Counted from the stretch's first letter, positions 5,593-44,694 are shown. The stretch is 64,000 nt of DNA from Alphaproteobacteria bacterium (GCA_965248835.1 CBDFLJ010000002.1:1152001-1216000); one strand, 5' to 3'. Notes: generated by a model from the letters alone, not told the origin. Numbers and translations: made by a program.

Positions 5593-5643
5593 CGCGGCAA
5601 CCGGTCCGCGTCCAAGCGGGCAATCCCGCCCGGCGAAGCAGGA

Positions 5644-5733: not shown

Positions 5734-5843
5734 GTGCGATGACATCTACAGCGATTCCATCGCTCCAGACACTGCTTTTCGCGCTGTGTGCACCGGAGCA
5801 CAGTCTTATGATCGGCGCGGGATGACACCGTGGGAGGAGCGAT

Positions 5844-6464: not shown

Positions 6465-6538
6465 GGCAGCGCCGGATATCGCCGGGCTGACCGCTCTGCT
6501 ATGCTCGGACGAACGGAATTCAAGACAGGGGATGGGTC

Positions 6539-8170
6539 ATGGCGGATCGCGCCAGCTACGACTACATCGTCGTCGGCGCGGGCTCGGCAGGCTGCGTGCT
6601 GGCCAACCGGCTGAGCGAGGACGCGGACGTCCAGGTGCTGTTGATCGAGGCCGGCGGCTGGGACCGCGACCCGATGATCCACATTCCCCTCGGTTGGGGC
6701 GTGCTGCTCGAAGAGCGCCGGCATGACTGGATGTATTTCACCGAGCCGGAGCCAAACCTCGACAACCGAAGCATCGAATGCGCCCGCGGACGGATCATCG
6801 GCGGGTCGTCCTCGATCAACGCCATGGCTTATGTCCGCGGCCATCGGGGCGACTACGACCGGTGGCGCCAGAAGGGCTGTCCGGGCTGGTCCTATGCCGA
6901 GGTGCTGCCCTATTTCCGCAAGGCCGAGAACTGGGGGGGCGGTGCCGACGCGTTCCGCGGCACGGACGGGCCGTTGTCGGTCCGCACCGGCACCTACAAC
7001 GACGATTTCGTCGATGCCTATGTCGAGGGCGCCAGGGCGATCGGCCACAAATACACCGAGGACTACAACGGCGCCGAGCAGGAGGGCTTTTGCCGGATCC
7101 AGCAGACCATCCGCGACGGCAAGCGGTGCAGCACCGCGGTGGCCTATCTGAAGCCGGTGCTGAAGCGGCCCAACGTGAGGCTTCACACCAGGGCGCTGGC
7201 CACCCGACTGCTGATCGAGAATGGCCGCGCCGTGGGGCTGGAATACGAGCACGGAGGGCAGATGCACGAGGTCCGGGCCGAGCGCGAGGTGCTGCTCTCG
7301 GGCGGGGTCATCAACTCCCCGCAGGTATTGTTGCTGTCAGGCATTGGCAGGCCTGACGAGCTGGGCGAGCACGGCATCCGGACCGTCCACGAGCTGCCCG
7401 GTGTGGGCAAGAACCTGCAGGACCATCTTTCGGCCATCGTCAACTACAGCCGCGAGAAGGCCGGGGTCTTCCGCACCCAGATGCGGCTCGACCAGCTCGC
7501 GATGGACATGCCGCGGGCCTATCTCGCCGGCAGTGGACCGGCGACCGACCTGCCGGCAGGCGTGATGGCCTTCGTCAAGAGCCGGCCCGAGGCCGACTTG
7601 CCCGACATCCAGTTCCTGTTCCGCGACTTGCCGGTGGAGACCTATCCCTGGTTCCCCGGATATCGGCGCGCGTGGCCCGACGGGTTCGGCTGCCGTCCGG
7701 TGCTGCTGCGCCCGCAGAGCAGGGGCGAGGTCAAGCTCGCCTCCGCCGATCCGCGCAAAAAAATCCGCATCATCCAGAATTTCCTGTCCGAGCCGGCCGA
7801 TATCGAGACTCTCCGCGAGGGATTCAAACGGGTGCGCGAGGTCGGTGAGACCAAGGCGCTGGAGCGCTTCGGCGTTGCCGAGACCGACCCCGGAGTCGAC
7901 GTGACCTCCGATGCGGAGATCGATGCCTATATCCGCGCGACCTCGGCGACAGCGCACCATCCGGCCGGGACCTGCAAGATGGGAAGTGACGACATGGCGG
8001 TCGTCGACCCCGAACTGAAGGTGCGCGGGATTGACGGGCTGCGGGTTGTCGATGCCTCGGTCTTTCCCGACCTGGTCGGCGGCAACATCAACGCCCCGGT
8101 GATCATGATCGCCGAGAAGGCCGCCGACATGATCCGGGGCCGCGCGCCCCTGGCGCCGGCGGAGGTCTGA
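6539..8170 (+). CDS. GMC oxidoreductase (choline dehydrogenase family; 4-pyridoxate dehydrogenase-like)
   Basis: YDYIVVGAGSAGCVLANRLS, GGSSSINAM, GVGKNLQDH, HHPAGTCKMG and LRVVDAS motifs. Confidence 0.92.
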   Translation: MADRASYDYIVVGAGSAGCVLANRLSEDADVQVLLIEAGGWDRDPMIHIPLGWGVLLEERRHDWMYFTEPEPNLDNRSIECARGRIIGGSSSINAMAYVRGHRGDYDRWRQKGCPGWSYAEVLPYFRKAENWGGGADAFRGTDGPLSVRTGTYNDDFVDAYVEGARAIGHKYTEDYNGAEQEGFCRIQQTIRDGKRCSTAVAYLKPVLKRPNVRLHTRALATRLLIENGRAVGLEYEHGGQMHEVRAEREVLLSGGVINSPQVLLLSGIGRPDELGEHGIRTVHELPGVGKNLQDHLSAIVNYSREKAGVFRTQMRLDQLAMDMPRAYLAGSGPATDLPAGVMAFVKSRPEADLPDIQFLFRDLPVETYPWFPGYRRAWPDGFGCRPVLLRPQSRGEVKLASADPRKKIRIIQNFLSEPADIETLREGFKRVREVGETKALERFGVAETDPGVDVTSDAEIDAYIRATSATAHHPAGTCKMGSDDMAVVDPELKVRGIDGLRVVDASVFPDLVGGNINAPVIMIAEKAADMIRGRAPLAPAEV

Positions 8171-8263
8171 TGGCGCCGATTGACATCGACCCGGAGCGCC
8201 TGACTGCGATACTGTGGCCTGGGCGGTACCGGTGAACCGGCTGGCGCAACGTAAAGATTTCGC

Positions 8264-8863
8264 GTGCGGTTGTTCTGTCTCGATCTCGAAGGCGTCCTGA
8301 TACCCGAAGTCTGGATCGGGCTCGCGGAACGTACTGGCATCGAAGCGCTTCGCGCGACCACCCGCGACATCCCCGACTACGATACCCTGATGCGCCAGCG
8401 GCTTCGGCTGCTGGACGAGAACGGGTTGGGGATGGCCGACATCGGCGCAGTGGTCGCGGGCATGGAGCCGCTACCCGGCGCGGCCGTCTTCCTCGACTGG
8501 CTGCGCGAGCGCGGGCCGGTGGTCATCCTGTCCGATACCTTCGCCGAGTTCGCTCGGCCGCTGATGCGCGCACTCGGCTGGCCGACGCTGTTCTGCCACA
8601 GCCTTACCGTGGCCGACGACGGCGCGATCACGGACTACACCCTGCGCCATGCCGATCACAAGCGCGCCAGCGTGCTCGCTTTCAAGGCGCTCAACTTCCA
8701 CGTCACCGCGGTCGGCGATTCCTACAACGACACCGCCATGCTGGGCGCGGCCCACGCCGGCATTCTGTTCCGCGCCCCGCCGGCCGTCCGCGAGGAGTTC
8801 CCCGACTTCCCGCCGGTCGAGGACTACGCTGCGCTGCGGGAGGCGATTCTCGATTGCGGCTGA
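8264..8863 (+). CDS. thrH: Phosphoserine phosphatase / homoserine phosphotransferase ThrH (HAD family)
   Basis: CLDLEGVLIPEVW, LRATTRDIPDYD, ILSDTF and GDSYNDTAML motifs. Confidence 0.9.
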   Translation: MRLFCLDLEGVLIPEVWIGLAERTGIEALRATTRDIPDYDTLMRQRLRLLDENGLGMADIGAVVAGMEPLPGAAVFLDWLRERGPVVILSDTFAEFARPLMRALGWPTLFCHSLTVADDGAITDYTLRHADHKRASVLAFKALNFHVTAVGDSYNDTAMLGAAHAGILFRAPPAVREEFPDFPPVEDYAALREAILDCG

Positions 8864-8902
8864 GCCGGGCAGGCGGAGAATCGCTCTGTCCTGTCGAGCT
8901 TC

Positions 8903-8930
8903 TTGTCCGATCACAACGGATTGATATAGT
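8903..8930 (+). promoter_or_regulatory. Putative sigma70 promoter of the livK-like gene
   Basis: TTGTCC-N16-TATAGT about 70 nt upstream of the start codon. Confidence 0.4.
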
Positions 8931-9002
8931 GAGCCGCCGCGCGTTTCCGAGCGGCATTCCGCCCGTTTGGGCTCGGTTCCAGGAAAATCGGAGAAACGAA
9001 CG

Positions 9003-10106
9003 ATGACCAGCCGTTGGAAATTGGCGCTTGCGGTCGCTGGCGCCTCTCTGCTCGGCATCACGGCGGCCAAGGCCGAGATCGCGATCGCGACGGCCGGACC
9101 GATGACCGGGCAATATGCCGCATTCGGCGAGCAGATGCGCCGGGGCGCAGAGATGGCTGCGCGCGATATCAACGCCAAGGGCGGCGTGCTCGGCCAGAAG
9201 CTCCGTATCGAGATCGGCGATGACGCGTGCGATCCCAAGCAGGCCGTGGCGGTCGCCAACGAGATGGTGGGCAAGGGCATCCGGTTCATGGCCGGCCATT
9301 TCTGCTCAGGGTCTTCGATCCCGGCCTCGGACGTCTATGCCGACGAGGACATTCTGCAGATCTCGCCCGCATCGACCAACCCCAAGCTGACCGAGCGCGG
9401 GATGGCCAACGTCTTCCGGGTCTGCGGCCGCGACGATCAGCAGGGCAAGGTCGCCGGCAACTTCCTGGCCGATATGTTCGGCAACAAGAAGATCGCGGTC
9501 CTCCATGACAAGACGGCCTACGGTAAGGGGCTTGCCGATGAGACCCGGAAGACGCTGCGCGGCCGGGGCAAGAGCGAGACGCTGTACGAGGCCTTTACCG
9601 CCGGCGAGAAGGACTATTCGGCGCTGGTCTCCAAGCTCAAGAAGAACGGCATCAATGTGGTCTATCTCGGCGGCTATCACACCGAGGCGGGGCTGATCGT
9701 CCGCCAGATGCGCGCCCAGGGCATGGCGACGAAACTGGTCTCGGGCGATGCGTTGGTGACTGATGAGTACTGGGCGATTACCGGCGCGGCGGGTGAGGGG
9801 ACGCTGATGACCTTCAGCCCCGACCCGCGCAAGAATCCGGTCGCCAAGCCTCTGGTCGAGCGTTTCCGCGCCGGTGGCTACGAGCCGGAGGGATACACTC
9901 TTTACACCTACGGGGCGATCCAGGCCTGGGTTCAGGCAGTCGAGAAAGCCGGCACCACCGACACCTCCAAGGTGATCGAGGTCCTCAGGTCGGCCAGCTT
10001 CGAGACGGTGCTGGGCAAGATCGGTTTCGACAGCAAAGGCGACGTGACCGCGCCCGGCTACGTCTTCTATGAATGGAGCAACGGCAAGTACGACTACATT
10101 AACTGA
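9003..10106 (+). CDS. livK: Branched-chain amino acid ABC transporter substrate-binding protein (LivK/BraC), stand-alone
   Basis: Signal peptide ending AKA; AGPMTGQYAAFG, DDACDPKQAVAVAN, GHFCSGSSIPAS and HDKTAYGKGLAD motifs. Confidence 0.9.
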   Translation: MTSRWKLALAVAGASLLGITAAKAEIAIATAGPMTGQYAAFGEQMRRGAEMAARDINAKGGVLGQKLRIEIGDDACDPKQAVAVANEMVGKGIRFMAGHFCSGSSIPASDVYADEDILQISPASTNPKLTERGMANVFRVCGRDDQQGKVAGNFLADMFGNKKIAVLHDKTAYGKGLADETRKTLRGRGKSETLYEAFTAGEKDYSALVSKLKKNGINVVYLGGYHTEAGLIVRQMRAQGMATKLVSGDALVTDEYWAITGAAGEGTLMTFSPDPRKNPVAKPLVERFRAGGYEPEGYTLYTYGAIQAWVQAVEKAGTTDTSKVIEVLRSASFETVLGKIGFDSKGDVTAPGYVFYEWSNGKYDYIN

Positions 10107-15124: not shown

Positions 15125-16351
15125 GTGAGCGATAAGCTCCAACGCGTATCGAAATCCGAAGTCGGCCAAGCCGCGATCGACAACGCCGCCGGCTACCTGT
15201 CCTCGATCGAGGAGGTGATCGAGGATATCCGCAACGGCCGCGTCGTAATCCTGGTCGATGACGAGAACCGCGAGAACGAGGGCGACCTGGTGGTTGCGGC
15301 GCAAATGGCGACGCCCGAGGTGGTCAACTTCATGGCCACCCACGGGCGCGGGCTGATCTGCCTGGCGATGACCCGCCCGCGGGTCGAAACCATCGGCCTA
15401 CCGCTGATGTCCCAGCACAACCGGACCCGCCACCAGACAGCCTTCACGGTCTCGATCGAGGCGCGCGACGGGGTGACGACGGGAATCTCCGCGCCGGACC
15501 GCGCACGCACGATCGCCGTCGCGATCGATTCCACCAAGGGCGCCGAGGACATCGTAACGCCTGGTCACATCTTCCCGCTGGTAGCGTCCGACGGCGGCGT
15601 GCTCGAGCGCGCCGGCCATACCGAGGCCTCGGTCGACATCGCTCGGCTCGCCGGGTTGAACCCTTCGGGCGTGATCTGCGAGATCATGAATGACGACGGC
15701 ACCATGGCCCGGCTGCCGGACCTGGTCAGCTTCGCCCAGTACCACGGCCTGAAAATCGCTACCATAGAGGCCCTGATCGCCTACCGTCTGCGCCACGACA
15801 CCCTTGTCGAGCGCCTGCTCCAGACCCGCGTGCGCCGAGCCAATGGCGGCGACTTCCGGCTGATCATCTACGTCAACCGGATCAGCGGCGCCGAGCACCT
15901 GGCGCTGATCAAGGGCGAAATCTCCGGGTCCGAACCGTTGCTTGTGCGCATGCACGCGATCAACGTGCTCGACGACGTGCTGCACGACCAGACCAGCGGC
16001 CGGGGCGATGAAATGGAAGCCTGCATCCGGGCGATCAGCGAGGCGGGCCGCGGGCTCGTGGTGATGATCCGCGATTCCTATGCGCAAAGCTTCGCCAATC
16101 AGGTTCGCCAACGCCACGAGCTGCCCGACGATCCCGGCGCGGCCTCGGTCGAGGTCAGCGTGACCACCGGCGGCGAGCGCGCCTTCAGCCCGCCGGCGCT
16201 GCGGGACTACGGCGTCGGCGCCCAGATCCTGCGCGACCTCGGGGTCCACGACATGATCCTGCTGACCAACCATCCGCGCGCGGTCGTGGGTCTGGAAGCC
16301 TACGGTCTGCGCATCGTCGAACGTCGCGCCATCGGCTCCTCGCGCTGCTAG
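15125..16351 (+). CDS. ribB: 3,4-dihydroxy-2-butanone-4-phosphate synthase with degenerate C-terminal GTP cyclohydrolase II-like domain (RibBX type)
   Basis: [17 protein letters not shown] and [12 protein letters not shown] present; the C-terminal domain lacks the Zn-binding cysteines. Confidence 0.92.
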
Positions 16352-33598: not shown

Positions 33599-34711
33599 TC
33601 AGAGGAAGTGGCCGCTCTTGCTGGCCTTGGTGGACAGGTAGAATGCGTTGTGGTCATTGGACGGGAAGGCGTGGGGGACACGCTCGGTGACCTCGATGCC
33701 GAAATGGGCAAGCCCGTCGACCTTGTCGGGATTGTTGGTCATCAGCCGGACCTTCGCAAACCCCAGCCGGCGCAGCATCTCCGCAGCCGGCAGAAAGATC
33801 CGCTCGTCGGCCTCGAAGCCCAGCCGCTCGTTGGCCTCGACGGTGTCGAAGCCCTGGTCCTGCAGCGCGTAGGCACGCAGCTTGTTGATCAGCCCTATGC
33901 CGCGGCCTTCCTGAGCGAGATAGAGCAGGATGCCGCTGCCGGCGGCAGAGATGTGCTCGATCGCCCCGCGGAGTTGCTGGCCGCAATCGCATTTGAGCGA
34001 GCCCAGCAGGTCGCCCGTGAAGCATTCCGAATGGAGCCTGGCGAGCACCGGGCCCGGCGGTGCGGGATCGCCGATCACGATGGCGAAATGCTCGATGCCG
34101 CCATCGCGCGGCCGAAAGGCGACGATTCGGGTCGCCTCCGCGCCTTCGAGCGGGACCCGCGCCGATGTCACGCGTTCCAGCGCGCAGGCCGCGGCGAGGT
34201 CATAGGCCATGATGTCCGCAGCGGTCAGCCGCAGAACCGACGTGCCGGGCGGTCCCAGCACCACGCCGAGATCATCGACGGAAACGGTAAGCACCGCCGG
34301 CAGCAGCCGGGCGATCTTTGCCAGCCGGACGGCGGCGAGGACCCCTTCGGGCACCGGATCGCGGCGTGCCTCGAACGGCCCGCGAAGCGGATGAGACAGG
34401 TCGGTTGCCGGATCGGCAAGGCTCGCCAGGGCTTCGACCGCAAGCCAGTCCGGCACCGGGATGCGCACCACGTCGGGGGTGTAGAGTCTGATCTTCAGTG
34501 TCACCGCCCTGTTGTGGGTGATCGCCAGATCGGGTTCGACGCCGGCCCAGGCGCGCAGGGCCGCCAGACGCTCGGCGGAGGCGAACTCGGCCGCGAACGC
34601 GATCACGCCCGGGACGCTGTCGGGATCGGCGATGACCACCGGCAGCCCGCGGCGCAGGTCGCCCGCGGCCCGGTCGACACCGGCCAGGGGTGAGACCGCA
34701 AACCCACTCAT
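33599..34711 (-). CDS. ribA: GTP cyclohydrolase II, long alphaproteobacterial form
   Basis: RLHSECFTGDLLGSLKCDCG, QEGRGIGLINKLRAY and LMTNNPDK motifs. Confidence 0.93.
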   Translation of the reverse strand: MSGFAVSPLAGVDRAAGDLRRGLPVVIADPDSVPGVIAFAAEFASAERLAALRAWAGVEPDLAITHNRAVTLKIRLYTPDVVRIPVPDWLAVEALASLADPATDLSHPLRGPFEARRDPVPEGVLAAVRLAKIARLLPAVLTVSVDDLGVVLGPPGTSVLRLTAADIMAYDLAAACALERVTSARVPLEGAEATRIVAFRPRDGGIEHFAIVIGDPAPPGPVLARLHSECFTGDLLGSLKCDCGQQLRGAIEHISAAGSGILLYLAQEGRGIGLINKLRAYALQDQGFDTVEANERLGFEADERIFLPAAEMLRRLGFAKVRLMTNNPDKVDGLAHFGIEVTERVPHAFPSNDHNAFYLSTKASKSGHFL

Positions 34712-34812
34712 AGACCCTAAATACGCCGCCCAGGGCGATCGGGCAAACACCGGGCCGGCCCCTTGCCGCCCGGCTGGCGCTGTGCGAGGTTGAGGATGCG
34801 ATCGCAAGGAAC

Positions 34813-35838
34813 GTGGTGGTCATGGAAGCCTGGGAAGTCAAAGACTTGGCGAAGTCTTTCGGCGCTGATCTGGTCGGTATCGCCAGCGCGGAGGTGCTCA
34901 ACGCCTTCCCCCCCGATCCGCTGTTTCCCCAGACCCCGGAACGCATCTCGCCGCACGCAAAGTCGGTCATCGTCATTGTCCAGCGCATCCCGGTCGGCGC
35001 CTTCCGCTGCAAGACCAACGTGCCGGTCCAATACATCAACATGCTGGTGCTGCGCCGCATGGACAAGATCGCCTACCGCGTGGTCGAGGCCCTGGAGCGT
35101 GCCGGTTACCCGAGCTTCGTGACCGCGGCCCAGGAGACCGATTGGTCCTACAAGCGCGCCTCCTACGGCCGGCTCAGCACCCGGCACCTGGGAATCGAGG
35201 CGGGGCTGGGCACGTTCGGGCTGGAGGTGAACATTCTGACGCCGGAGTTCGGCCCGCGGATCTATCTGACCGGCGTCCTGAGCGAATGTGTGCTGGAGCC
35301 CGACCGGCCGATGACGGAGCAGGTCTGCATCGGTGAAAGCTGCAGCCGCTGCCTTTATTCCTGCCCGACCGATGCGGTACGCCATTTCGGCATCGACAAG
35401 CGGGCGTGTTCCATCGAGGCGCAGGAGTTTGGTTTCTCCACCATCCTCAAGTTCTGGGAGCATTTCATCGCATCGGACGGAGCGACCAGGCGCCGGCTGA
35501 TCAGCGACCGCGAGATCTTCGGGTTCTGGCAGGGGCTGTTGCGGGTGGTCGGTTCGTTCGGCGACTGCCCGCGCTGTCTTGCCGTCTGTCCGGTGGGCAA
35601 CGACTACCATGCCCATCTGGCCGACCTGCAGAAGGTGATCCCCGAAAAGACGCCCGAGAAGGTCGACAAGGCGCGCGGTTTCAAGGATGCACGCAAGGCT
35701 GGCGCCGATATCGACGGGCTCAACGACTGGAACGTTCGCTGGGTTGGTCCCGAAGGCTACAAGGGGATCGTCGCCCGCCAGCTCCAGGCCTTCAAGGCAG
35801 AGCAGCGCGCACGTGAAAAAGACGCACTTGAGGATTGA
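34813..35838 (+). CDS. QueG/reductive dehalogenase-like 4Fe-4S protein, paralog 1
   Basis: GADLVGIA, SVIV, HLGIEAGLGTFG...LTPEFGPRIYL, CIGESCSRCLYSCP, a lone C (KRAC) and CPRCLAVCP. Start could be 34813, 34816 or 34822. Confidence 0.8.
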   Translation: MVVMEAWEVKDLAKSFGADLVGIASAEVLNAFPPDPLFPQTPERISPHAKSVIVIVQRIPVGAFRCKTNVPVQYINMLVLRRMDKIAYRVVEALERAGYPSFVTAAQETDWSYKRASYGRLSTRHLGIEAGLGTFGLEVNILTPEFGPRIYLTGVLSECVLEPDRPMTEQVCIGESCSRCLYSCPTDAVRHFGIDKRACSIEAQEFGFSTILKFWEHFIASDGATRRRLISDREIFGFWQGLLRVVGSFGDCPRCLAVCPVGNDYHAHLADLQKVIPEKTPEKVDKARGFKDARKAGADIDGLNDWNVRWVGPEGYKGIVARQLQAFKAEQRAREKDALED

Positions 35839-35841
35839 GCG

Positions 35842-36852
35842 ATGGTTGCTGCCTACAAGACACCGCTCGATGCCGCGGCGATCAAGCAAAAGGCCAAGGC
35901 GCTCGGCGCCGATCTCGTCGGCATCGCCGACGGCGCGGTGATGGACGCCCATCCGCCCGACCCGCGCAATCCGCAACGGCCCAGCGACATCACCGAGCAC
36001 GATGGCGGACGGGTGATCGTGCTGGCCAAACGCTATACCGCCGGCACCACGCGAATCGCCCGGTGGGACGAGCGCCACAAATATTACAACGACGAGATCA
36101 CGCTCACGAGGCTGGAAGAGACCGCGCTGGAACTCGTCTTCTGGCTCGAGGACCATGGCTATCCGGCGATTATCATCCCGCCGACCCATGTCGACCCTTG
36201 GCGCTACCGCGGCGACCCGGGCCAGCACATGACCACGGTTCTCTCGCTCACCCACGCCGCTGTCGAGGCAGGCCTGGGCACGCTCGGGCTCAACCTCCAG
36301 CTCCTCACGCCCGAATTCGGGCCGCGGGTAATCCTGACCGCGGTCCTGTGCAGCCTCCCGTGCGAAACCGATCCCCGGATCACCGAGACCCTGTGCAAGG
36401 GCCCCGAATGCGGCCGTTGCCTGTCAGCCTGTCCGGGCGATGTGGTCGGGCATTGGGACCGGGACTGGCCGGCCTGCGACCGGTTCCGCTCTCCGCACGG
36501 CTTTGCTCAGTTGGTCGACCATCTGGGCGAGATCCTCGAAGCGCCGGACGAGGCCGCCCAGCTCGATCTGATCCGGTCGGAGACCAGCTTCAACCTCTGG
36601 CAGTCCATCCTGCGCGGCGCCGGGGTGATCACCGGCTGCCGGCGCTGCCAGGACGTCTGCCCGGTGGGCGAGGACTATGAAGCGATGCTGGACGATGCGC
36701 TGGAGCAGATCCCCGAGGCCAGCGCCGAGAAGTCCACCCGCCTGGCCGAGATGAACGTCGCCGAAGAAGCCGGCGGTTTACCGGAGAGTTACCGGGCGCA
36801 GGAGCGCTGGATCGGATCGCTCGGTTATCGACGGGATGCCGGCGGCGCATGA
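35842..36852 (+). CDS. QueG/reductive dehalogenase-like 4Fe-4S protein, paralog 2
   Basis: GADLVGIA, HAAVEAGLGTLG...LTPEFGPRVIL, CKGPECGRCLSACP, a lone C (WPAC) and CRRCQDVCP. Confidence 0.8.
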   Translation: MVAAYKTPLDAAAIKQKAKALGADLVGIADGAVMDAHPPDPRNPQRPSDITEHDGGRVIVLAKRYTAGTTRIARWDERHKYYNDEITLTRLEETALELVFWLEDHGYPAIIIPPTHVDPWRYRGDPGQHMTTVLSLTHAAVEAGLGTLGLNLQLLTPEFGPRVILTAVLCSLPCETDPRITETLCKGPECGRCLSACPGDVVGHWDRDWPACDRFRSPHGFAQLVDHLGEILEAPDEAAQLDLIRSETSFNLWQSILRGAGVITGCRRCQDVCPVGEDYEAMLDDALEQIPEASAEKSTRLAEMNVAEEAGGLPESYRAQERWIGSLGYRRDAGGA

Positions 36853-38204
36853 GCGCGATCGAGGACCTCGCCCGGGTCCATCGAAGGGCCCATTACGCGG
36901 ACCTGCCGCTGTGCATCCCGGAAAGCGCCGCGCAGGTCGCAGCGATCCAGAGCGCGCGCAAACGCGTCGCCGTGGAGCGGGCGCGGCGGTCGACATTCTG
37001 GCGGCCGCGGCTGCAACACATCGCGCTCGACAGGCTGGACGATCCCGAGGAGTGGGCGCGGATTCCGATCCTCGACAAGGACCAGCTCCGCGCGATGACG
37101 CCGGAGGCCTTCTACGCCGATTTCTGCACCGCCGGAGAAACACCGATCTGCGAGTATTGGCGCTCCGGCGGCAGTACCGGCCGGCCGCTGTTCTACCCCA
37201 AGACCTACGAGGACATGCTCTACAACATGATCGGCTTCACCCGGACGTTTGCCTGTGCCGGGATCGGGGCGGTGCCGGGATCGAGCGAGCGGGTGCACCT
37301 GTCGATGCCGCTGGGCATCCACCCCGCCGGCCATGTGTGGGCGCGGGCGGCCGAGATCATGGGCATGGCCGTGGTGTGGGGCGGATCGGGCGCATCGCTG
37401 CCCTCGACCCAGCAACTCGAGCTCATCGAGATGCTGTCGCCCACGGTGTGGATGGGGATGTCGAGCTACGGCCTGCATCTGGCGAACCTCGCCAACACGA
37501 GGGGCGGCGACCTTGCAGGCAGTTCGGTCAAGACCATCATGTGCACCGCCGAGCCGTGTTCGGCGGCCAAGCGTGAGAAGCTGGAACGCGACTGGGGGGC
37601 CAAGGTCTTCGACTGCTTCGGCATGACCGAGGTCAGCATGCTTGGCGCCGAGGGGCCTTCACGGGAGGCTTTCCGGGTCTGGTCGGATCTGGCGTTCTTC
37701 GAGGTGCTCGATCCGGAGACACGCAAGCCGGTCGCCGATGGTACACCCGGTCGACTGGTCGTGACCGCGCTGTTCGGCAACGAAGGGGCACCGTTCCTGC
37801 GCTGGGATTCCGGCGATATCGTGATCATGAACCCGACGGTGAGCGACGACGGCCCGTTCTCGGTCTTCCCGTTGCTGCGCCACGCCCACCGGACCGCCGG
37901 GTTCTTCAAGGTGCGCGGGGTTAACGTCAATCACCAGGAGTTCGAGGACTTCGTGTTCGACAACGCGGCGATCAACGACTTCAAGGCCGAGCTAGTCAGC
38001 GACACGACCGGGCTCGACCTGATGCGGGTCTCGATCGAGGTCCGCTGCGGCGTCGACGCGGAAACCGAGCGCCGCGATGTCGAGCGCCGCACCAAGGCGT
38101 TGTTCGAGGTTTCCCCGGAGGTGGTCGTGCTGGAGACCGGCACCCTCGCCGCGGAGTTTGAAGCCAGCGTCAAGGCGCCGCGGTTCGTCGACCGGCGTGC
38201 ATAG
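36849..38204 (+). CDS. Phenylacetate-CoA ligase (PaaK) family protein
   Basis: IPILDKDQLR, RSGGSTGRP, FGMTE, LVVTAL, LRWDSGD and FKVRGVNV motifs; ATGA overlap with paralog 2. Confidence 0.85.
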   Translation: MSAIEDLARVHRRAHYADLPLCIPESAAQVAAIQSARKRVAVERARRSTFWRPRLQHIALDRLDDPEEWARIPILDKDQLRAMTPEAFYADFCTAGETPICEYWRSGGSTGRPLFYPKTYEDMLYNMIGFTRTFACAGIGAVPGSSERVHLSMPLGIHPAGHVWARAAEIMGMAVVWGGSGASLPSTQQLELIEMLSPTVWMGMSSYGLHLANLANTRGGDLAGSSVKTIMCTAEPCSAAKREKLERDWGAKVFDCFGMTEVSMLGAEGPSREAFRVWSDLAFFEVLDPETRKPVADGTPGRLVVTALFGNEGAPFLRWDSGDIVIMNPTVSDDGPFSVFPLLRHAHRTAGFFKVRGVNVNHQEFEDFVFDNAAINDFKAELVSDTTGLDLMRVSIEVRCGVDAETERRDVERRTKALFEVSPEVVVLETGTLAAEFEASVKAPRFVDRRA

Positions 38205-38429
38205 GCCGGGACGGTTGGTCCTCCTGGCGAGTCGCCGAACCGGATTTCGTCATTGGTGATTCGCTTCTCCGGCGCGTTCGACGACCGCGCCGATATCGGC
38301 GGTTATCTCATAACATTCTGATATATATGGATTTATTTTCTGGCCGGATCAAAAAGCCGGCGAATCGCGGGCGCCGGAAAAACGCGTTTTTATGGTTAAC
38401 AAACCTTTTACATATAAGGATTATATGGC

Positions 38430-38570
38430 TTGGATTTACGGTTTCTCCCTTCCGTGAATCCTCTGCGCCACAGGGGGGGAGTTTGGTTGTCCTACCAATG
38501 CCTCCCTGTGACCCCTCTGTGACTTGCGGGGCCATAACGGCCGGCGCCGGCTTTGGCTCCGCATCTTTTT
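38430..38570 (+). ncRNA. Candidate small RNA, SuhB/MmgR (alpha-r8)-like architecture; 5' end uncertain
   Basis: Lies between convergent genes. Contains hairpin TTGGT-TGTCCT-ACCAA, anti-SD CCTCCCT, GACTT, then terminator TGCGGGGCCA...TGGCTCCGCA-TCTTTTT. Confidence 0.55.
38525..38570 (+). terminator. Rho-independent terminator
   Basis: Stem TGCGGGGCCA/TGGCTCCGCA with internal GCCGG-CG-CCGGC, followed by TCTTTTT. Confidence 0.65.
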
Positions 38571-38609
38571 ACCCCAATTCGAACGCGAAAAACAGCCGCC
38601 TGTTGCCGC

Positions 38610-39938
38610 TCAGCCATAGAGCGCGGCACAAATCACCACCGCGCCGGCGATCCCGGCGAGATCGGCGGTCAACCCGACCGCCAGCGCATGACGGATGCGG
38701 CGGATCTGCACCGCGCCGAAATAGACCGCGAGCACATAGAACGTCGTCTCTGTCGAGCCCTGCAGCGTGCTGACGACGTATCCGGCATAGCTGTCCGGCC
38801 CGATCGCAGGATCGTTGATGATCGCGGCGAGCACCCCGTAGGCGCCCGAGCCCGACAGCGGCCGCAGCAGCGCCATCGGCAGCGCTTCGGCCGGCAAGCC
38901 GACCAGCGACGTCACCGGCGATAGGACCGCGATCAAGCCGTCCAGCGCGCCGCTGGAGCGGAACATGCCGACCGCGACCAGGATCGCGACCAGATAGGGG
39001 ATGATCCGGACCGCGACCTGAAATCCGTCCCGCGCGCCGTCGACGAAGACCTCGTAGATACGCACGCGCTTGGCCACGCCGAAACCGAGGAGCGTGACGG
39101 CCAGTCCCGGGATGATCCAGGGCGAGATATGGGTGCCGAACATGATGGTGAGCGGCACCAGCGCGGCAATGAAACCCAGCGCCAGAACCGATACCCAGGC
39201 CGGATAGGCCTCGCCCGCCGCCTCGGCGGCCTCGGGATCGAACGGCGCAAGGTCTGTGGCGGGCTCCTCGGTGGTCTCGGCCCGGCTCCCGGCCTCACGC
39301 CGCACCCGCTCCGCGATCGCCGCCGGGGAGGCGGCAAACCGGCCATAGAGCTTTGCCGCCACGATCGCGGTGGTGGTCGAGCATATGGTCGCGAACAACG
39401 TCGTCGGCAGGATCCCGGCCGGATCGCCGGAGCCTGCGGCCGCGCGCAGCGCGATGACGCCGGTGGGCAACAGCGTCACCGAGGAGGTGTTGATTGCCAG
39501 GAACAGCACCATCGCATCGCTCGCGGTGCCTTTGTGGGGGTTGAGCCGGTCGAGCTCCTGCATCGCACGGATCCCGAACGGCGTTGCCGCGTTGCCGAGC
39601 CCGAGCGCGTTGGCCGACATGTTGAGGATCATCGCGCCCATTGCCGGGTGGTCGTGCGGGATGCCTGGGAACAGGCGGACCATCAGCGGCCGGATGGTCT
39701 TGGCGATGATGCTAAGCAGCCCGCCGGCCTCGGCGACCTTCATCAGGCCGAGGAAGAACGCCATCACCCCGATCAGCCCGATGGCGAGGGTGACGGCGCT
39801 GCCGGCGGTCTCGACCATGCCGAGCGCCAGGGTCTCCATCGGACCGACCGGCTCGAGGCCGGCCGGGACCCAGACGATCTGCCGCCACGCCGCCGTCCCG
39901 AACGCGATCAGAACGAGCGCGAAGAAGACCGCGTTCAT
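38610..39938 (-). CDS. Fused SpmA/SpmB (nucleoside recognition Gate domain) membrane protein
   Basis: ANALGLGNAATPFG (SpmA), FLAINTS, RPLSGSGA and GSTETTFYVLAVYFG (SpmB) motifs. Confidence 0.9.
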   Translation of the reverse strand: MNAVFFALVLIAFGTAAWRQIVWVPAGLEPVGPMETLALGMVETAGSAVTLAIGLIGVMAFFLGLMKVAEAGGLLSIIAKTIRPLMVRLFPGIPHDHPAMGAMILNMSANALGLGNAATPFGIRAMQELDRLNPHKGTASDAMVLFLAINTSSVTLLPTGVIALRAAAGSGDPAGILPTTLFATICSTTTAIVAAKLYGRFAASPAAIAERVRREAGSRAETTEEPATDLAPFDPEAAEAAGEAYPAWVSVLALGFIAALVPLTIMFGTHISPWIIPGLAVTLLGFGVAKRVRIYEVFVDGARDGFQVAVRIIPYLVAILVAVGMFRSSGALDGLIAVLSPVTSLVGLPAEALPMALLRPLSGSGAYGVLAAIINDPAIGPDSYAGYVVSTLQGSTETTFYVLAVYFGAVQIRRIRHALAVGLTADLAGIAGAVVICAALYG

Positions 39939-39963: not shown

Positions 39964-40392
39964 TTAGATGCCGGCGCTCAGCCCCGCCGCCTCGATGCCG
40001 GCAACCGCGGCGACCTCGTCATTGTCGGAGGTATCGCCGCTGACGCCGACCGCGCCGATGATTTCCTCGCCGTCCTTGATCAGGACGCCTCCCGGCACCG
40101 GCACCAGGCGTCCCTGGGCGACATCGGACAGGGCGCCGATGAAATGCGGGCGTTCTGCGGCCATGGCGCCCAGCGCGCGCGAAGACCGTCCCATGCCGAC
40201 CGCGCCGAAAGCTTTGCCCGTAGCGATGTGTGGGCGAAGCGCCGCGCCCGGCCCGTCTTCGCGCTTGAAGGCCTTGAGGTGTCCGCCGTCATCGACCACC
40301 GAGACGGTCAGCGGATTCATGCCCTTGTCGTGGCCGGTCTCGATCGCGACATCGACGATCGTCGCCGCCTGCGCCAGTGTGAGATTCGCCAT
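39964..40392 (-). CDS. GlcG/HbpS family heme-binding protein
   Basis: VVDDGGHLKAFKREDG, GKAFGA and PGGVLI...GAVGVSG...DE motifs. Confidence 0.9.
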   Translation of the reverse strand: MANLTLAQAATIVDVAIETGHDKGMNPLTVSVVDDGGHLKAFKREDGPGAALRPHIATGKAFGAVGMGRSSRALGAMAAERPHFIGALSDVAQGRLVPVPGGVLIKDGEEIIGAVGVSGDTSDNDEVAAVAGIEAAGLSAGI

Positions 40393-40505
40393 TGCGCTGT
40401 CTCCTTGTCCGATGGAATGGTGCCGCACCGTAGTCGCAGGCCCTGACCAAAGAAAGCTTGAAGTGCCCCGGCACGCCCGTGATAGGGTCCGACGAGGAGG
40501 CGCCG

Positions 40506-41387
40506 ATGGTCATGCGAAAACGTCGTTGCGGGTCCTTCGAGATCCAGGCGGTCGAGGAGTGGTCGGGCCTCTATCGCGACCCGCTGGAAATGTATCCCGA
40601 TGCGACGCCCGAGATCGTCGACCGACACCGCGATTGGCTGGTCCCCGAGGCGTTGGACGCCGAGTCGGGCCTGATGATCTTCGCCTTTCAGAGCTACCTT
40701 TTGCGGACCGGCCGCTACACGATCCTCATCGATTCCTGCGTCGGCGAGGACAAGGAGCGCCCCGACCGGCCGAACTGGCACCGTAAGAAATGGCCGTGGC
40801 TCGACAACCTCAAGGCCGCCGGCGTTGCCCCCGAGGAGGTCGATTTCGTGATGTGCACCCATCTGCACGTCGATCACGTGGGCTGGAACACCAAGCTCGT
40901 GGACGGGCGTTGGGTGCCGACCTTCCCCAACGCCGCCTATCTGTTCGGGGAGACCGAGTACCGCCACTGGGAGGCCGAGTCCAAGAACCTCGACTTCATG
41001 CGCGAGGTCTTCGCCGACAGCGTCCTGCCGATCATGGAAGCGGGCAAGGCCACTCTGATCGGCGCCGATTTCGAGATCGACGCGGGGCTGACGATCGAGC
41101 CGACTCCCGGGCACACGCCGGGCCATATCTGCCTCAACGTGAACTCGCAGGGCCAGCAAGCGGTGTTCGCCGGCGATCTGATGCACCACCCGCTCCAGGT
41201 GCCCGAGCCGCAGCTCTCCAGCATCTTCTGCAGCGACGCCGAGCAGTCGCGCATCACGCGCAAGGCCTTCGTCGAGCGCTATACCGACAGCGATACGGTC
41301 ATCCTGCCGGCCCATTTCCCCGGGCGCTCGGCCGGGCGCATCAGGGACCAGCGCGGAACGACGCGGTTCGTCTTCTGCGATGACTGA
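40506..41387 (+). CDS. MBL-fold metallo-hydrolase
   Basis: THLHVDHVGWN, PTFPNA, PGHTPGH, GDLMH and PAHF motifs. Confidence 0.9.
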   Translation: MVMRKRRCGSFEIQAVEEWSGLYRDPLEMYPDATPEIVDRHRDWLVPEALDAESGLMIFAFQSYLLRTGRYTILIDSCVGEDKERPDRPNWHRKKWPWLDNLKAAGVAPEEVDFVMCTHLHVDHVGWNTKLVDGRWVPTFPNAAYLFGETEYRHWEAESKNLDFMREVFADSVLPIMEAGKATLIGADFEIDAGLTIEPTPGHTPGHICLNVNSQGQQAVFAGDLMHHPLQVPEPQLSSIFCSDAEQSRITRKAFVERYTDSDTVILPAHFPGRSAGRIRDQRGTTRFVFCDD

Positions 41388-42192
41388 GGCGCTTGGCGTC
41401 GGCATCGCGGGTCTGGGCGCGGTCGGCTGGCCGGTTGCCCGCGCCCTGGCGAACGGTCTGGACGGGCTCAGGCTCGCCGCGGTGTCCAGCCGCGATCTGG
41501 CCCGTGCGCGCGAACGCATGGCCGACATCGCGCCCGATGCCCCGGTGGTCCCTGCCGCCGCCCTGCCGGAACATGCCGACGTCGTCGTCGAATGCGTACC
41601 CAAGGCCGCCTTCGCCGAGGTCGCCGAGCCTGTGGTCGCGGCCGGCAAGATGCTGGTCACCGTCAGCGGGGCCGCACTCCTGGTCCATCCCGACATCGTC
41701 GACCGCGCCCGGCAGACCGGCGCGCGGATCGTGCTTGCGACCGGTGCGCTGCTCGGCCTCGATGCCGTCCGGGCAGCCGCGGAGGGCGAGATCCACGAGG
41801 TGCGGATGATCACCCGCAAGCCGCCCAGATCGCTCATCGGCGCGCCGCACCTGGAGCGGAACGGGATCTCGATCGACGGCCTTTCCGGGCCGCTCAAGGT
41901 CTTCGAAGGCTCCGCCCGTGAGGGTGCGGCGGGCTTCCCGGCCAATGTCAACGTCGCCGCGGCCCTGGGGCTTGCGGGTATCGGACCCGACCGCACGCGG
42001 CTCGAGATCTGGGCCGATCCGGCACTGGAGCGGAACACCCACGAGATCATCGTCGAAGCGGACAGCGCGCGCCTGACCATGAAGATCGAGAACGTGCCCT
42101 CGGACGAGAACCCGGGCACCGGCCGGATCACCGCCCTCAGCGTCATCGCCGCGCTGCGCGGGCTCGGCGCCCCGCTCAAGGTGGGGAGCTGA
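41380..42192 (+). CDS. nadX: L-aspartate dehydrogenase (NadX) family protein
   Basis: GLGAVG, VVEC, GALLGLD, RKPP, FPANVNVAAAL, NTHEI and ENP motifs. Confidence 0.85.
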   Translation: MTEALGVGIAGLGAVGWPVARALANGLDGLRLAAVSSRDLARARERMADIAPDAPVVPAAALPEHADVVVECVPKAAFAEVAEPVVAAGKMLVTVSGAALLVHPDIVDRARQTGARIVLATGALLGLDAVRAAAEGEIHEVRMITRKPPRSLIGAPHLERNGISIDGLSGPLKVFEGSAREGAAGFPANVNVAAALGLAGIGPDRTRLEIWADPALERNTHEIIVEADSARLTMKIENVPSDENPGTGRITALSVIAALRGLGAPLKVGS

Positions 42193-42239
42193 GGCGTCCG
42201 TCGAGCTTTGCCAAGCTCATGATCAGGGAGAACGAGGCC

Positions 42240-43148
42240 ATGGAATACCAGGCACTCAAGTGGGAAGTGCGCGACAACCCCAAGCGTCCGGGCGAGCGCT
42301 GCATCGGCGTGATCACGCTGAACCGGCCGGAGGCGCTGAACGCCGTCGACGTGCGGATGCGGGTCGAACTCGACATCCTGTGCGACCAGATCAGCCACAA
42401 CAACCATCTCAAGGTGATCGTCCTGACGGGCGAGGGCAGGGGCTTCTCGGCCGGCGGCGACCTGAAGTCCGAAGCCGACCCGCTGGGCGCCGGATCGGAC
42501 CCCGCGTTCGACATGGGCAATTTCGGGCCCTACAAGGAGCTCGCTCACCTGTTCTTCAACGACCTGCGTCACCAGGTCCTGCAGCGCGCCTTCCGCAAGC
42601 TGGAGGATCTGCCTCAGATCACGATCGCGGCGATCAACGGGCCGGCGGTCGGCATCGGGCTGGAGATCACCACCCTGTGCGACCTGCGGATCGCCTCGGA
42701 CCGGGCGAGGCTCGGCGAGGTCGCGGTGCCGGCAGGCTTCCTTCCCGAATCCGGCGGCGCGCGCAACCTTCCCAAGCTCATCGGCATCGGCAAAGCGCTG
42801 GAGCTGATCCTCACCGGGCGGATCATCGAGGCCGAGGAGGCCGAGCGCATCGGACTGGTCGAGCGCGTGGTTCCCCATGAAGACCTGCTCGACGAAGTGA
42901 TGACGCTCGCCGGTCGGATTTCCTCCAACCCGTATCTGTCGGTCCGCTACGCCAAGGAACTGGTGAAAATGTACTGGAACGCCAACCGCAGCCAGGAAGG
43001 CTGGGACCGCGAGTTCGCAGCGATCCAGGAAATCACCCGGACCGGCGACTGCCGCGAGGGGATGCGCGCCTTCATGGCCAAGCGCCCGCCGGAATACCGC
43101 GGTCCTTACTACGAAGCCTGGCCGTTCGGGAACGGCGCCGGTGACTGA
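42240..43148 (+). CDS. Enoyl-CoA hydratase/isomerase (crotonase) family protein
   Basis: ITLNRPEALNA, FSAGGDL, AAINGPAVGIG and EAERIGLV motifs. Confidence 0.9.
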   Translation: MEYQALKWEVRDNPKRPGERCIGVITLNRPEALNAVDVRMRVELDILCDQISHNNHLKVIVLTGEGRGFSAGGDLKSEADPLGAGSDPAFDMGNFGPYKELAHLFFNDLRHQVLQRAFRKLEDLPQITIAAINGPAVGIGLEITTLCDLRIASDRARLGEVAVPAGFLPESGGARNLPKLIGIGKALELILTGRIIEAEEAERIGLVERVVPHEDLLDEVMTLAGRISSNPYLSVRYAKELVKMYWNANRSQEGWDREFAAIQEITRTGDCREGMRAFMAKRPPEYRGPYYEAWPFGNGAGD

Positions 43149-44694
43149 CCGGCCGTCGATCCCGGCGCGCTTGAACCTTTGCGGCGCGGTTCTGGACGAT
43201 ATTGTGCGCGGCGGGCACGGCGAACGAACCGCCTTCGTCTGGGAGGGCGGGTCGATCACCTGCTGGGCGCTCCTGGATCGGGTGAAGCGGCTTGCCGGCG
43301 GGCTCGCCGCGCACGGGATCGTTCGCGGAATGCCCGTTCTGGTGCGCATGCCCAACTGCATCGAATTCGTGCTCACCTTTCTGGCACTAACCCGGCTGGG
43401 CGCGATCCCTGTGCTGCAGAATTCGCTGCTCGGGACGGAGGAGGTCGACTATGTCCTCGAGCATAGCCAGACCAGAGCGGCGGTTTCGCTGGCAGCGATC
43501 GCCGATCCGCTGTTGCGCCGCGCCGAGACGATCGATGTCCTGATCTGGCGCGGAACACGTCCCGGCGCAACCTCCTTGGAGACGATGGCGCAAGGTGGTC
43601 CCGCGGTGCTCGCGCCCGCCGATACCGCGGCCGACGAACCTGCCTTCATGGTCTACACCTCGGGCACCACGGGCCGGCCCAAGGGGATCGTCCACGCCCA
43701 TCGATGGGTCCACGCGCTCGGCGAGGCCAACCGCTGTCGGGTACCGCCGGAGCCCGGAGACGTCGCGCTTGCGACCGGCGAGTGGAGCTTCATCAGCGCG
43801 CTCGGCCATAACGTGGTGTTTGCGCTGCGCAACGGCGTAACCGGCGCGATCCTCGAGGGGCGGGCGCAGCCCGAAAGGGTGCTGGCAGCGATCGAGGCGT
43901 TCAAGGTCACGCTGCTCTATTCGGTAGCCACGGTCTACCGCCGCGTGCTTGCCATCGCCGGGGTCGAGAACCGTTATGACCTGTCGAGCCTGAGGGGTTG
44001 CAGCGCCACCGGCGAAGCCCTCGAGGCCGCGACCTGGGAGGAGTTCAAGCGGCGCATCGGCTGCGAGATCTGGGAGCATTACGGTGTCTCCGAGATGCAG
44101 ATGGTGCTGGGCCAGGGTCCGCGGCACCCGGTCCGCCCGGGATCGATCGGCATTCCTCTGCCCGGCACTCCGGTCGCGGTCTGCGACGAGGATTACCGCG
44201 AACTGCCCGCCGGCGAGATCGGCCGGTTCCTGATCGGCGCCGACAACCCGGGCTTCTTCCTCGGCTACCATCGAGACGAGGCGTTGACCCGGCAGGTGAT
44301 CCATGACGGCTGGTACCATACCGGCGACCTCGCCTGGCGCGACGACGACGGCTATTACTGGATCGCCGGGCGCGAGGACGATTGCTTCAAGAGCCGCGGC
44401 ATCTTCATCTCGCCCTACGAGATCGAGGACGCGCTCCGCCGGCATGCAGGCGTCGCCGAGGCCTGCGTGGTGCCGAGCCCCGATCGGGAAATTGGCAACC
44501 GGATCCGCGCGGTCGTCGTGCTGCGCGGTAAGCACGCGGGCTCCGACGGGCTGGGCGATCGGATCCGCACCAGCCTGCGCGGCAGAATCGCGCCGTTCAA
44601 GATCCCGCATATCGTTGAAGTCGTCGACGCCCTGCCGATGAGCCCGGTCGGAAAGGTGCTGCGCCGAAAGGTCGCCGAAGGCGATAGCTCATAG
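43141..44694 (+). CDS. Acyl/aryl-CoA synthetase (AMP-binding)
   Basis: YTSGTTGRPKG, GEAL, YGVSE, WYHTGD, GREDD and SPVGK motifs. Confidence 0.9.
   Translation: MTDRPSIPARLNLCGAVLDDIVRGGHGERTAFVWEGGSITCWALLDRVKRLAGGLAAHGIVRGMPVLVRMPNCIEFVLTFLALTRLGAIPVLQNSLLGTEEVDYVLEHSQTRAAVSLAAIADPLLRRAETIDVLIWRGTRPGATSLETMAQGGPAVLAPADTAADEPAFMVYTSGTTGRPKGIVHAHRWVHALGEANRCRVPPEPGDVALATGEWSFISALGHNVVFALRNGVTGAILEGRAQPERVLAAIEAFKVTLLYSVATVYRRVLAIAGVENRYDLSSLRGCSATGEALEAATWEEFKRRIGCEIWEHYGVSEMQMVLGQGPRHPVRPGSIGIPLPGTPVAVCDEDYRELPAGEIGRFLIGADNPGFFLGYHRDEALTRQVIHDGWYHTGDLAWRDDDGYYWIAGREDDCFKSRGIFISPYEIEDALRRHAGVAEACVVPSPDREIGNRIRAVVVLRGKHAGSDGLGDRIRTSLRGRIAPFKIPHIVEVVDALPMSPVGKVLRRKVAEGDSS

Follow-up and report, generated by a model that had tools for sequence, protein, structure and literature searches.

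A tandem pair of QueG/RdhA-like proteins coupled to an acid-activating ligase: a candidate for novel B12-dependent chemistry in many bacteria of soil, wastewater, and the sea

Results

A three-gene locus encoding two cysteine-rich paralogs and a ligase

We analyzed a 64,000-nucleotide (nt) stretch of DNA from an Alphaproteobacteria bacterium (GCA_965248835.1 CBDFLJ010000002.1:1152001-1216000), referred to below as the window; coordinates are window positions unless a locus handle is given. The subject of this report is a set of three genes on the plus strand, A, B, and C. Gene A (34813..35838) encodes a protein with the fold of QueG and the reductive dehalogenases (RdhA), the probable catalytic subunit, of 341 amino acids (aa) when read from a GTG. 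Because the same protein is called as 338 aa in the window's own genome (P0170), the ATG at 34822 is the likely true start. Gene B (35842..36852; 336 aa) encodes a paralog of A, its probable partner subunit, and gene C (36849..38204; 451 aa) encodes a PaaK-type adenylate-forming (acyl-coenzyme A [CoA]) ligase. An initial annotation, made from the sequence alone, had described three open reading frames (ORFs) here, with a 3-nt gap between A and B and an ATGA overlap of B with C, and we recovered all three with exactly this spacing. A divergent RibA-like gene lies to the left and a convergent Gate-domain gene to the right, so that A-B-C looks like a three-gene operon. A promoter and terminator consensus scan of positions 34400-38800 returned nothing above the level of shuffled sequence.

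A and B are paralogs, as had been proposed: BLASTP aligned them at 39% identity over 312 aa (E value, 4e-63), far beyond chance. Every motif listed in the initial annotation was present in both proteins, namely, GADLVGIA; PPDP..PQ.P; H...EAGLGT.GL...LTPEFGPR; C-x4-C-x2-C-x3-CP; a lone Cys; GF; WQ..LR; C-x2-C-x3-CP-VG.DY; and the C-terminal RW.G. Eight Cys residues were invariant in an alignment of 76 A sequences (A2) and likewise in one of 68 B sequences (A3). In A, the first Fe-S motif, C172-x4-C177-x2-C180-x3-C184-P (35326..35367), was invariant in 76/76 sequences. It is followed by the invariant lone Cys199 (35407..35409), which by analogy with QueG and RdhA would be the fourth ligand of the second cluster, and by the second Fe-S motif, C252-x2-C255-x3-C259-P-V-G-x-D-Y (35566..35607), whose Cys residues are also invariant. 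An insert inside the ferredoxin module separates Cys199 from the second motif (35410..35565). It had been predicted to be helical and about 50 aa long; it comprises 52 residues, which the AlphaFold 2 (AF2) model builds as four helices (residues 196-203, 208-220, 223-230, and 233-244). B follows the same plan, with C185-x4-C190-x2-C193-x3-C197-P (36394..36435; invariant in alignment A3), the invariant Cys212 (36475..36477), and C266-x2-C269-x3-C273-P-V-G-x-D-Y (36637..36678; Cys invariant). Ahead of the clusters, both proteins contain an EAGLG...TPEFGPR core. In A, it stands together with a putative active-site loop, K114-x-x-S117-Y118-G119...R124-H125 (residues 114-149; 35152..35259), and this segment aligns to Asp134...Arg141 of QueG and to residues 280-345 of PceA. 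In B, the core is preceded by a diverged loop that has five extra residues and lacks the Arg corresponding to R124 (residues 122-162; 36205..36327).

Fold and phylogenetic placement

Pfam matched only generic Fer4 models in A and B. As single sequences searched against the PDB, both matched QueG (5d08; E values of 4.6e-11 for A and 1.3e-7 for B) and PceA-type dehalogenases, with E values from 2.3e-7 (A, PceA) to 1.3e-4. A profile built from 76 family members matched a reductive dehalogenase (RDH) complex (8q4h; 4.7e-27), QueG (5d08; 8.9e-27), PceA (4uqu; 7e-20), and NpRdhA (6.8e-15). The AF2 model of A had a predicted local distance difference test score (pLDDT) of 92.7 and a predicted template modeling score (pTM) of 0.90, and its best Foldseek matches were all QueG, PceA, or NpRdhA, followed by MMACHC. 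Aligned with VIA-align, the model gave Z scores of 18.0 with NpRdhA (236 aa; root mean square deviation [rmsd], 3.8), 17.7 with QueG (212 aa; rmsd, 3.2; model residues 1-268 on chain residues 2-254), 17.6 with the RDH complex, and 17.2 with PceA, which places A equally distant from the three solved branches. MMACHC followed at a Z of about 10 over 170-190 residues, and flavin mononucleotide (FMN) nitroreductases at about 7, covering residues 1-160 only. All solved structures that matched A at a Z above 8.1 were cobalamin proteins (RdhA, QueG, or MMACHC).

As modeled, A has the QueG/RdhA fold, a cobalamin-type module joined to a two-cluster ferredoxin module. Its architecture is that of the Class III cobalamin enzymes, a nitroreductase-like module followed by a ferredoxin module for two [4Fe-4S] clusters with eight Cys residues, and the similarity extends over 210-240 residues at a Z of 17-18. 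Residues 269-341, beyond the end of the QueG match at residue 268, form a family-specific helical tail. The superfamily membership that the initial annotation had read from motifs is thus borne out by single-sequence matches, by the family profile, and by the fold.

In a FastTree phylogeny of 79 sequences (SH-like support values only; midpoint rooted), A and B formed a joint clade (support, 99) within which clade A (82) was sister to clade B (99), and the nearest relatives of this clade were single-gene proteins. The whole family was split from the QueG of the window's own genome, as well as from three RdhA-like proteins encoded there, with a support of 97; the initial annotation had suggested a phylogeny as a check. 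A search of 400 genomes sampled from the phylum with one of the closest single-gene relatives (P0070) as the query recovered nothing beyond the window's own pair.

The three RdhA-like proteins of this genome (L002, L003, and L005, on contigs C1 and C2) are short, at 329-361 aa, and score 108-128 bits against the RDH model TIGR02486, below its cut-off of 160. Altogether, this organism, which is apparently unable to make B12, has seven Class III-like ORFs. One is a basal, long-branch family member with an altered first Cys motif (the L007 locus; L108, contig C2:2001000-2016000, about positions 6300-9510); 3 nt downstream of it comes an AMP-binding gene of a strongly diverged ANL type, and an FAA-hydrolase gene is next. 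We considered the ligase at this locus (L108:7262-8764) as a homolog of C and rejected it, since the two have no similarity; the arrangement is a loose parallel only. Six longer proteins (P0089, P0111, P0119, P0122, P0138, and P0139; 735-794 aa) match A in two to four stretches at 30-35% identity. Three of them were read (P0089, P0111, and P0119), and these distant multidomain relatives contain an EAGLG...TPEYGPR core twice, at both chain ends.

A and B differ from QueG and from respiratory reductive dehalogenases

Matches of A and B to the QueG model TIGR00276 were local only and reached 45.1 and 39.9 bits, respectively (cut-off, 200); scores against TIGR02486 were 29.6 and 25.6 bits (cut-off, 160.35). 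No match to PF08331 (DUF1730) or to HEAT repeats was found in either protein, and the DYH motif of QueG is not present in A or B, in an alignment that is unreliable over that helix. The initial annotation had argued that the pair is not canonical QueG and had asked for a separate queG in the genome. That gene exists: on the other contig, a true QueG scores 438.7 bits and carries DUF1730, Fer4_16, and HEAT signatures. We therefore rejected a housekeeping tRNA function, given this true QueG and the patchy distribution of the pair (see below). With the exception of three C-terminal halves of fusions, none of the 164 A- and B-type sequences checked had a motif resembling a twin-arginine translocation (TAT) signal in its first 45 residues, and no RdhB-like membrane-anchor gene lies beside A and B, whose neighbors are the ligase and the RibA-like gene. 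A respiratory RdhA was rejected on these two grounds, and together with the low RDH scores they sustain the earlier statement to the same effect. In databases, family members are named "hypothetical," "ferredoxin," or, wrongly, "QueG"; at the least, the present analysis corrects a recurrent misannotation as QueG.

A and B occur as neighbors and as natural fusions

Gene neighborhoods were counted in the best 80 of 537 related genomic stretches (73-95% identity). A was followed directly by B in 78 of these 80 loci, mostly with gaps of -1 to 23 nt, and the other two were contig ends. Among 300 other genomes of the class, sampled evenly, 14 had A; B was adjacent in 13 of them, and one genome had three pairs. 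A search for longer relatives returned 21 proteins, 18 of which (627-694 aa) consist of an A-like N-terminal half and a B-like C-terminal half. Each of the 18 could be aligned across both halves, and we inspected three by eye. Some fusions seen once could be read-through artifacts; five sources contributed a total of 19 contigs with the fusion P0002, which is encoded as a single ORF of 678 aa at its locus. In the tree, the N-terminal halves of fusions fell within clade A and the C-terminal halves within clade B. A model of the fusion P0158 had a pLDDT of 90.4 and a pTM of 0.92 over 675 residues, which indicates that the two modules are confidently placed against each other.

We also predicted the complex of separate A and B chains. 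The interaction prediction score from aligned errors (ipSAE) was 0.53 (0.52, 0.53, and 0.59 in individual runs), compared with 0.01 for the best of three controls; at least 94% of the contacts agreed between runs, and the partner pLDDT was at least 89. This is weak support, as the ipSAE mark is reached by 58/80 solved complexes and 2/110 mismatches, and those reaching it with an ipSAE of 0.60 or under include only 7 of the 80 solved complexes but both mismatches. Moreover, the run used custom alignments, and a like complex, the PceA dimer, has been solved, so that the pass may reflect memory or likeness. The possibility of a heterodimer, raised by the initial annotation, is backed by natural fusions, constant adjacency, the fold of the fusion, and this weak pass, and these predictions suggest that A and B probably form a heterodimer.

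The pair is coupled to a PaaK-like ligase

C matched PF00501 (1.2e-15; 57.7 bits; cut-off, 29.9) and two PaaK models with E values of 1e-40 and 3e-31. The scores against the latter, 108.5 bits for TIGR02155 (cut-off, 646.3) and 139.6 bits for NF041878 (cut-off, 700), are far below the equivalog cut-offs, which points to a separate subfamily. Matches to PDB sequences covered the full length of C, with E values from 1.3e-24 (PaaK, 4r1l) to 5e-21. In 72 sequences, C kept a nucleotide loop, W-R-S-G-G-S-T-G-R-P (37158..37196; at least 97% conserved), the GMTE and SGD motifs, the hinge, and a Lys within a conserved C-terminal segment, VKAPRFVDRR (38160..38201). We take the first of these to be the ANL/PaaK nucleotide-binding loop and the Lys to be the adenylation lysine. 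Judged by these features, C is a PaaK-like/ANL adenylate-forming enzyme.

C was located downstream of A-B in 75 of the 80 loci, and three others were contig ends; the paralog-paralog-ligase triplet that the initial annotation had expected is indeed conserved. A second acid-activating gene precedes A on the same strand in 17 of the 80 loci. It encodes an ANL enzyme assigned to the benzoate-CoA-ligase family, with 367.5 bits for a cut-off of 375, so that these operons have two different acid-activating enzymes; in one of them (L021, positions 5240-7000), the upstream gene ends 3 nt before A. In P0166 (898 aa), a benzoate-CoA-ligase-family enzyme is fused to an A-like protein. The link of A and B to acid activation is strong and not obligatory.

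Residues that distinguish A from B

The position of R124 is Arg in 84/84 A sequences and Arg or Lys in 30/31 single-gene relatives. It is never Arg in B, in which 80 sequences have Asn (28), Pro (20), Thr (15), Asp (8), or others. R124 lies at the position of Arg141 in Bacillus subtilis QueG, which is described as shielding the lower face of the corrin in the part of that study available to us (PMC5175355). G119 shows the same pattern, being present in 84/84 A sequences and 27/31 single-gene relatives and replaced by Thr or Pro in B. K114 and Y118, which flank the position of the QueG Asp, are invariant (84/84) in A only, and B has its five-residue insertion there. As A keeps ancestral residues that were lost from B, it is probably the catalytic half, and B would be a cluster-bearing partner.

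Distribution and genomic context

A library of representative sequences contained 1,897 relatives at an E value of 1e-3 or below and 81 at 1e-30 or below, and an annotated collection contained at least 1,703 clusters (90% identity) at 1e-40 or below. The best 80 loci were all from alphaproteobacterial metagenome-assembled genomes (Defluviicoccus, Rhodospirillales, and Hyphomicrobiales; marine, sponge, soil, and lake bins). Within the class, the distribution of the pair is patchy and accessory (14/300 genomes). Clustering of all flanking ORFs in the 80 loci revealed no further universally conserved gene beyond A/B (79 loci) and the ligase (72 loci). Next came the RibA-like gene (25 loci; 27 by tblastn), the second ANL-type ligase (17 loci), and an enoyl-CoA hydratase (16 loci); other large clusters were read from their coordinates, without a Pfam check, as shadow frames over A, B, and C. 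Smaller sets comprised CoA-transferase III, acyl-CoA dehydrogenase, MFS, EamA, and Rieske oxygenase genes.

Marker genes indicate 100% completeness for the window's genome, a two-contig assembly with a contamination of 9.5%. This genome encodes two ORFs with B12-binding domains in addition to the true QueG, and its one cobalamin riboswitch stands in front of a TonB-dependent receptor. The organism is a B12 scavenger that uses B12, a background compatible with a cobalamin-dependent function of A and B and no evidence for it.

Discussion

A model for A, B, and C

We propose that A and B are an obligate cytoplasmic heterodimer of the Class III cobalamin superfamily that acts on an acid activated by the ligase, and we give this account about an even chance of being right. 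The pair would represent a third branch of the superfamily, in addition to those of QueG and the reductive dehalogenases, and would share the Class III module, in which a base-off corrinoid sits in the nitroreductase-like module next to two [4Fe-4S] clusters. A would be catalytic, having kept the ancestral Arg and Gly together with an invariant Lys-Ser-Tyr loop of its own where QueG has its catalytic Asp. B, which keeps both clusters, would serve as dimer scaffold and point of electron entry, like the second subunit of PceA or the vestigial domain of NpRdhA. The translationally coupled C would convert a carboxylic acid and ATP, via an acyl-adenylate, to a CoA thioester. On the activated molecule, A/B may then perform a two-electron reductive elimination that removes a halide, the oxygen of an epoxide, or a hydroxyl group, using electrons from an unlinked low-potential ferredoxin. 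Much of this agrees with the initial annotation. Its assignment to the superfamily outside QueG and the respiratory enzymes, its triplet, and its heterodimer stand on the in silico results; the corrinoid, the substrate, the chemistry, and the catabolic role are features that we, too, infer.

A more far-reaching version is possible, and we put it forward tentatively, at clearly less than an even chance. The family would be a fourth functional Class III branch, in which mostly aerobic Alphaproteobacteria pair a catalytic with an electron-feeding paralog for B12-dependent reductive elimination on acyl-CoA (dehalogenation, epoxide deoxygenation, or dehydroxylation) in a way that no known family does, and it would impose a cobalamin demand, so far uncounted, on environmental B12 auxotrophs.

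Several observations weigh against the proposed model. Class III enzymes have no sequence motif for cobalamin binding according to the available part of PMC4646009, so that corrinoid binding is not readable from the sequence. The catalytic Asp of QueG is given as Asp134 in B. subtilis (available part of PMC5175355) and as Asp130 in S. thermophilus (available part of PMC4646009). This position is occupied by Ser117 in A (Ser in 79, Thr in 4, and Ala in 1 of 84 sequences) and by Leu or Met in B. Tyr246 of PceA aligns to Leu80 of A by profile, and the DYH motif of QueG aligns inconsistently with that; a Tyr conserved in the family (Y74 in A and Y82 in B) lies 6 residues upstream of the Tyr246-aligned position, where the QueG and PceA alignments conflict. 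Nor does every QueG have an Arg at the position of Arg141, since S. thermophilus QueG has Thr there in the profile alignment, and B is strongly conserved in its own right, so that it may not be a passive partner. Superposition of NpRdhA on both halves of the fusion covered 355-370 residues at an rmsd of 13-15 Å, a value at which a shared dimer geometry is neither shown nor excluded. The A-B-C operon contains no electron-donor gene, and an Rfam scan of the whole 64-kb window returned two tRNAs only and no cobalamin riboswitch. As neither CobN nor CobS was found in the genome, which has a single TP_methylase only, any corrinoid must be imported. Finally, the ligase was missing in 2/77 near loci that reach far enough (L020 and L082). 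In distant metagenome loci, several of them duplicates, a PaaK-type ligase was present in 9/15 informative loci and missing from 6/15. L098 has an ANL-type enzyme instead, L095-L097 have an ABC transporter, and in L088 and L089, which hold both copies of the truly fused gene, a divergent enoyl-CoA hydratase is encoded and a PaaK-type ligase is not.

Alternative explanations

The nitroreductase-like module of the same ligase-linked heterodimer might bind flavin or nothing, which would make A/B an Fe-S oxidoreductase or electron-transfer module. We consider this unlikely while taking it seriously: the fold derives from FMN nitroreductases, which still match at a Z of about 7; Class III enzymes have no corrinoid motif to check (available part of PMC4646009); the QueG catalytic residues are not kept; the genome cannot make B12; and a GTP cyclohydrolase II paralog, of the flavin-pathway type, adjoins A in 27/80 loci. 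However, all matches above a Z of 8.1 are cobalamin proteins, with the FMN enzymes far lower and confined to residues 1-160, and solved proteins that combine this module with a two-cluster ferredoxin domain all bind cobalamin, as far as the available text of PMC4646009 describes them. A small chance attaches to a corrinoid-dependent A/B whose substrate for reduction is a free acid or a different small molecule, with the ligase acting before or after it in cofactor or natural-product biosynthesis, for example, in amide or ester formation. Known catabolic RdhAs do act on free halophenolic acids (PMC10463259, in the part available to us), natural-product enzymes are among the PaaK-like relatives of C with solved structures (AjiA1, 6wuq; 6siw), some loci lack the ligase, and a RibA-like paralog is a frequent neighbor. 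Yet the genes that recur nearby encode acyl-CoA enzymes (enoyl-CoA hydratase at 16 loci, a further CoA ligase at 17, and also CoA-transferase III and acyl-CoA dehydrogenase), biosynthetic core genes do not recur, and the spread over 14/300 genomes is patchy, as for accessory catabolic genes.

Three other functions have much lower probabilities. Corrinoid processing or trafficking of the CblC/MMACHC kind, with removal of the upper ligand from scavenged cobalamins, would suit a B12 auxotroph such as this scavenging host and would draw on the MMACHC match (Z of about 10 over 170-190 residues). We find it highly improbable, as A resembles RdhA and QueG far more strongly (Z of 17-18) and has a ferredoxin module, which CblC lacks (available part of PMC4646009); a CoA-type ligase would be without an evident role, and there is neither a riboswitch nor a link to the transporter locus. 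A second QueG-like enzyme modifying tRNA or a nucleoside has a very slight probability in spite of the best single-sequence PDB match, which is QueG, of some automated annotations, and of the "nucleoside recognition" Gate-domain gene downstream in 10/80 loci: the scores of 45 and 40 bits fall far short of the QueG cut-off (200), DUF1730 and the RNA-binding HEAT domain are lacking, the catalytic Asp is replaced, and a true QueG is encoded elsewhere in a genome of a class in which only 14/300 members sampled have the pair. That A/B is a respiratory organohalide reductase is hardly credible at all, even with PceA-type enzymes among the best fold and profile matches, considering the lack of a TAT motif in 164 sequences and of an RdhB-like anchor gene and RDH scores (29.6 and 25.6 bits) that stay well below the cut-off of 160.

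Relation to known systems

The proposed heterodimeric reductase resembles QueG (5d08 and 5d6s) in its nitroreductase-like and two-[4Fe-4S] modules, in the Cys pattern with a detached fourth ligand, in its cytoplasmic location, and in the Arg of A at the B. subtilis Arg141 position. It differs in that QueG has DUF1730, a tRNA-binding HEAT domain, and a catalytic Asp where A has Ser and B has Leu or Met. The ferredoxin insert is also longer in A (52 residues), and QueG is a monomer with no such partner, whereas two paralogous chains with a coupled ligase and a patchy spread are found here. The NpRdhA, BhbA, and JtRdhA group (4ras and 6zxx) provides the top structural match (Z of 18.0) and is likewise cytoplasmic and without a TAT signal. 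These enzymes have two copies of the core module per functional unit, one of them diverged (PMC10463259, available part), and the A-B fusions are similar to them in length, at about 670-700 aa. The extra module of NpRdhA is, however, vestigial and cluster free, whereas A and B both keep eight Cys; in our loci a CoA ligase is coupled in place of a fused or neighboring reductase, and the TIGR02486 scores are only 29.6 and 25.6 bits. PceA-type RdhA (4uqu and 8q4h) shares a nearly identical EAGLG...TPEFGP.R core and is dimeric. PceA forms a homodimer, and the vestigial duplicate of NpRdhA, which is free of cobalamin, mimics that interface (available part of PMC10463259). A and B would instead form a heterodimer of paralogs, with no TAT leader, no RdhB, and no Tyr aligned to Tyr246. 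MMACHC/CblC has the same cobalamin-binding module (Z of about 10) but is much less similar and lacks the ferredoxin module. For C, the closest comparison is with PaaK and PaaK-like ligases (4r1l and 2y4o; 2-hydroxyisobutyryl-CoA synthetase, 6hdw), to which it is alike over its full length with the adenylation motifs kept, although its 108.5 and 139.6 bits contrast with cut-offs of 646 and 700.

To our knowledge, reductive dehalogenation and epoxyqueuosine reduction are the only established reaction types of Class III B12 enzymes. In the literature outside subscription journals, we found no description of this family or of QueG/RdhA-like genes coupled to CoA ligases. Payne et al. (2015) expected further Class III families and pointed out, in the part of their paper available to us, that these cannot be recognized by a sequence motif (PMC4646009). 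The family is abundant, with at least 1,703 clusters at 90% identity, 537 genomic relatives, and 14/300 sampled genomes of the class. This uncharacterized family of probably two-part enzymes may catalyze a novel B12-dependent reaction in numerous bacteria from soil, wastewater, and the sea. If it is corrinoid dependent, it would represent a novel heterodimeric architecture with novel B12 chemistry acting on CoA-activated acids, and it would raise estimates of cobalamin dependence for bacteria of these environments.

Other genes near the triplet

The divergent RibA-like gene to the left of A (33599-34807, minus strand) encodes a GTP cyclohydrolase II paralog with an N-terminal extension of ~200 aa. 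Such a paralog lies within about 0.1-4 kb of A in the 27/80 loci mentioned above, which may reflect a functional link or mere synteny. The window contains a second GTP cyclohydrolase II at about 15821-16327, ~18 kb upstream. On the other side of the triplet, the Gate-domain gene of the "nucleoside recognition" type recurs downstream in the 10/80 loci already noted. A few kilobases downstream of the ligase, an HbpS-like/DUF336 gene (39964-40428, minus strand) is present, as it is in 9/80 loci; this domain is presumably the one also attached to the PduO cobalamin adenosyltransferase, and a corrinoid link here would be a guess. Eight Defluviicoccus-type loci, L019 (positions 615-1958) among them, encode a genuine reductive dehalogenase ~5 kb upstream of the triplet, with a score of 204 bits (cut-off, 160). 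Further downstream in the window, a plus-strand block at 40458-44694 comprises metallo-beta-lactamase-fold, aspartate-dehydrogenase-like, enoyl-CoA hydratase, and ANL ligase genes. L008 and L015, the two closest loci long enough to cover this block, have it conserved alongside the triplet.

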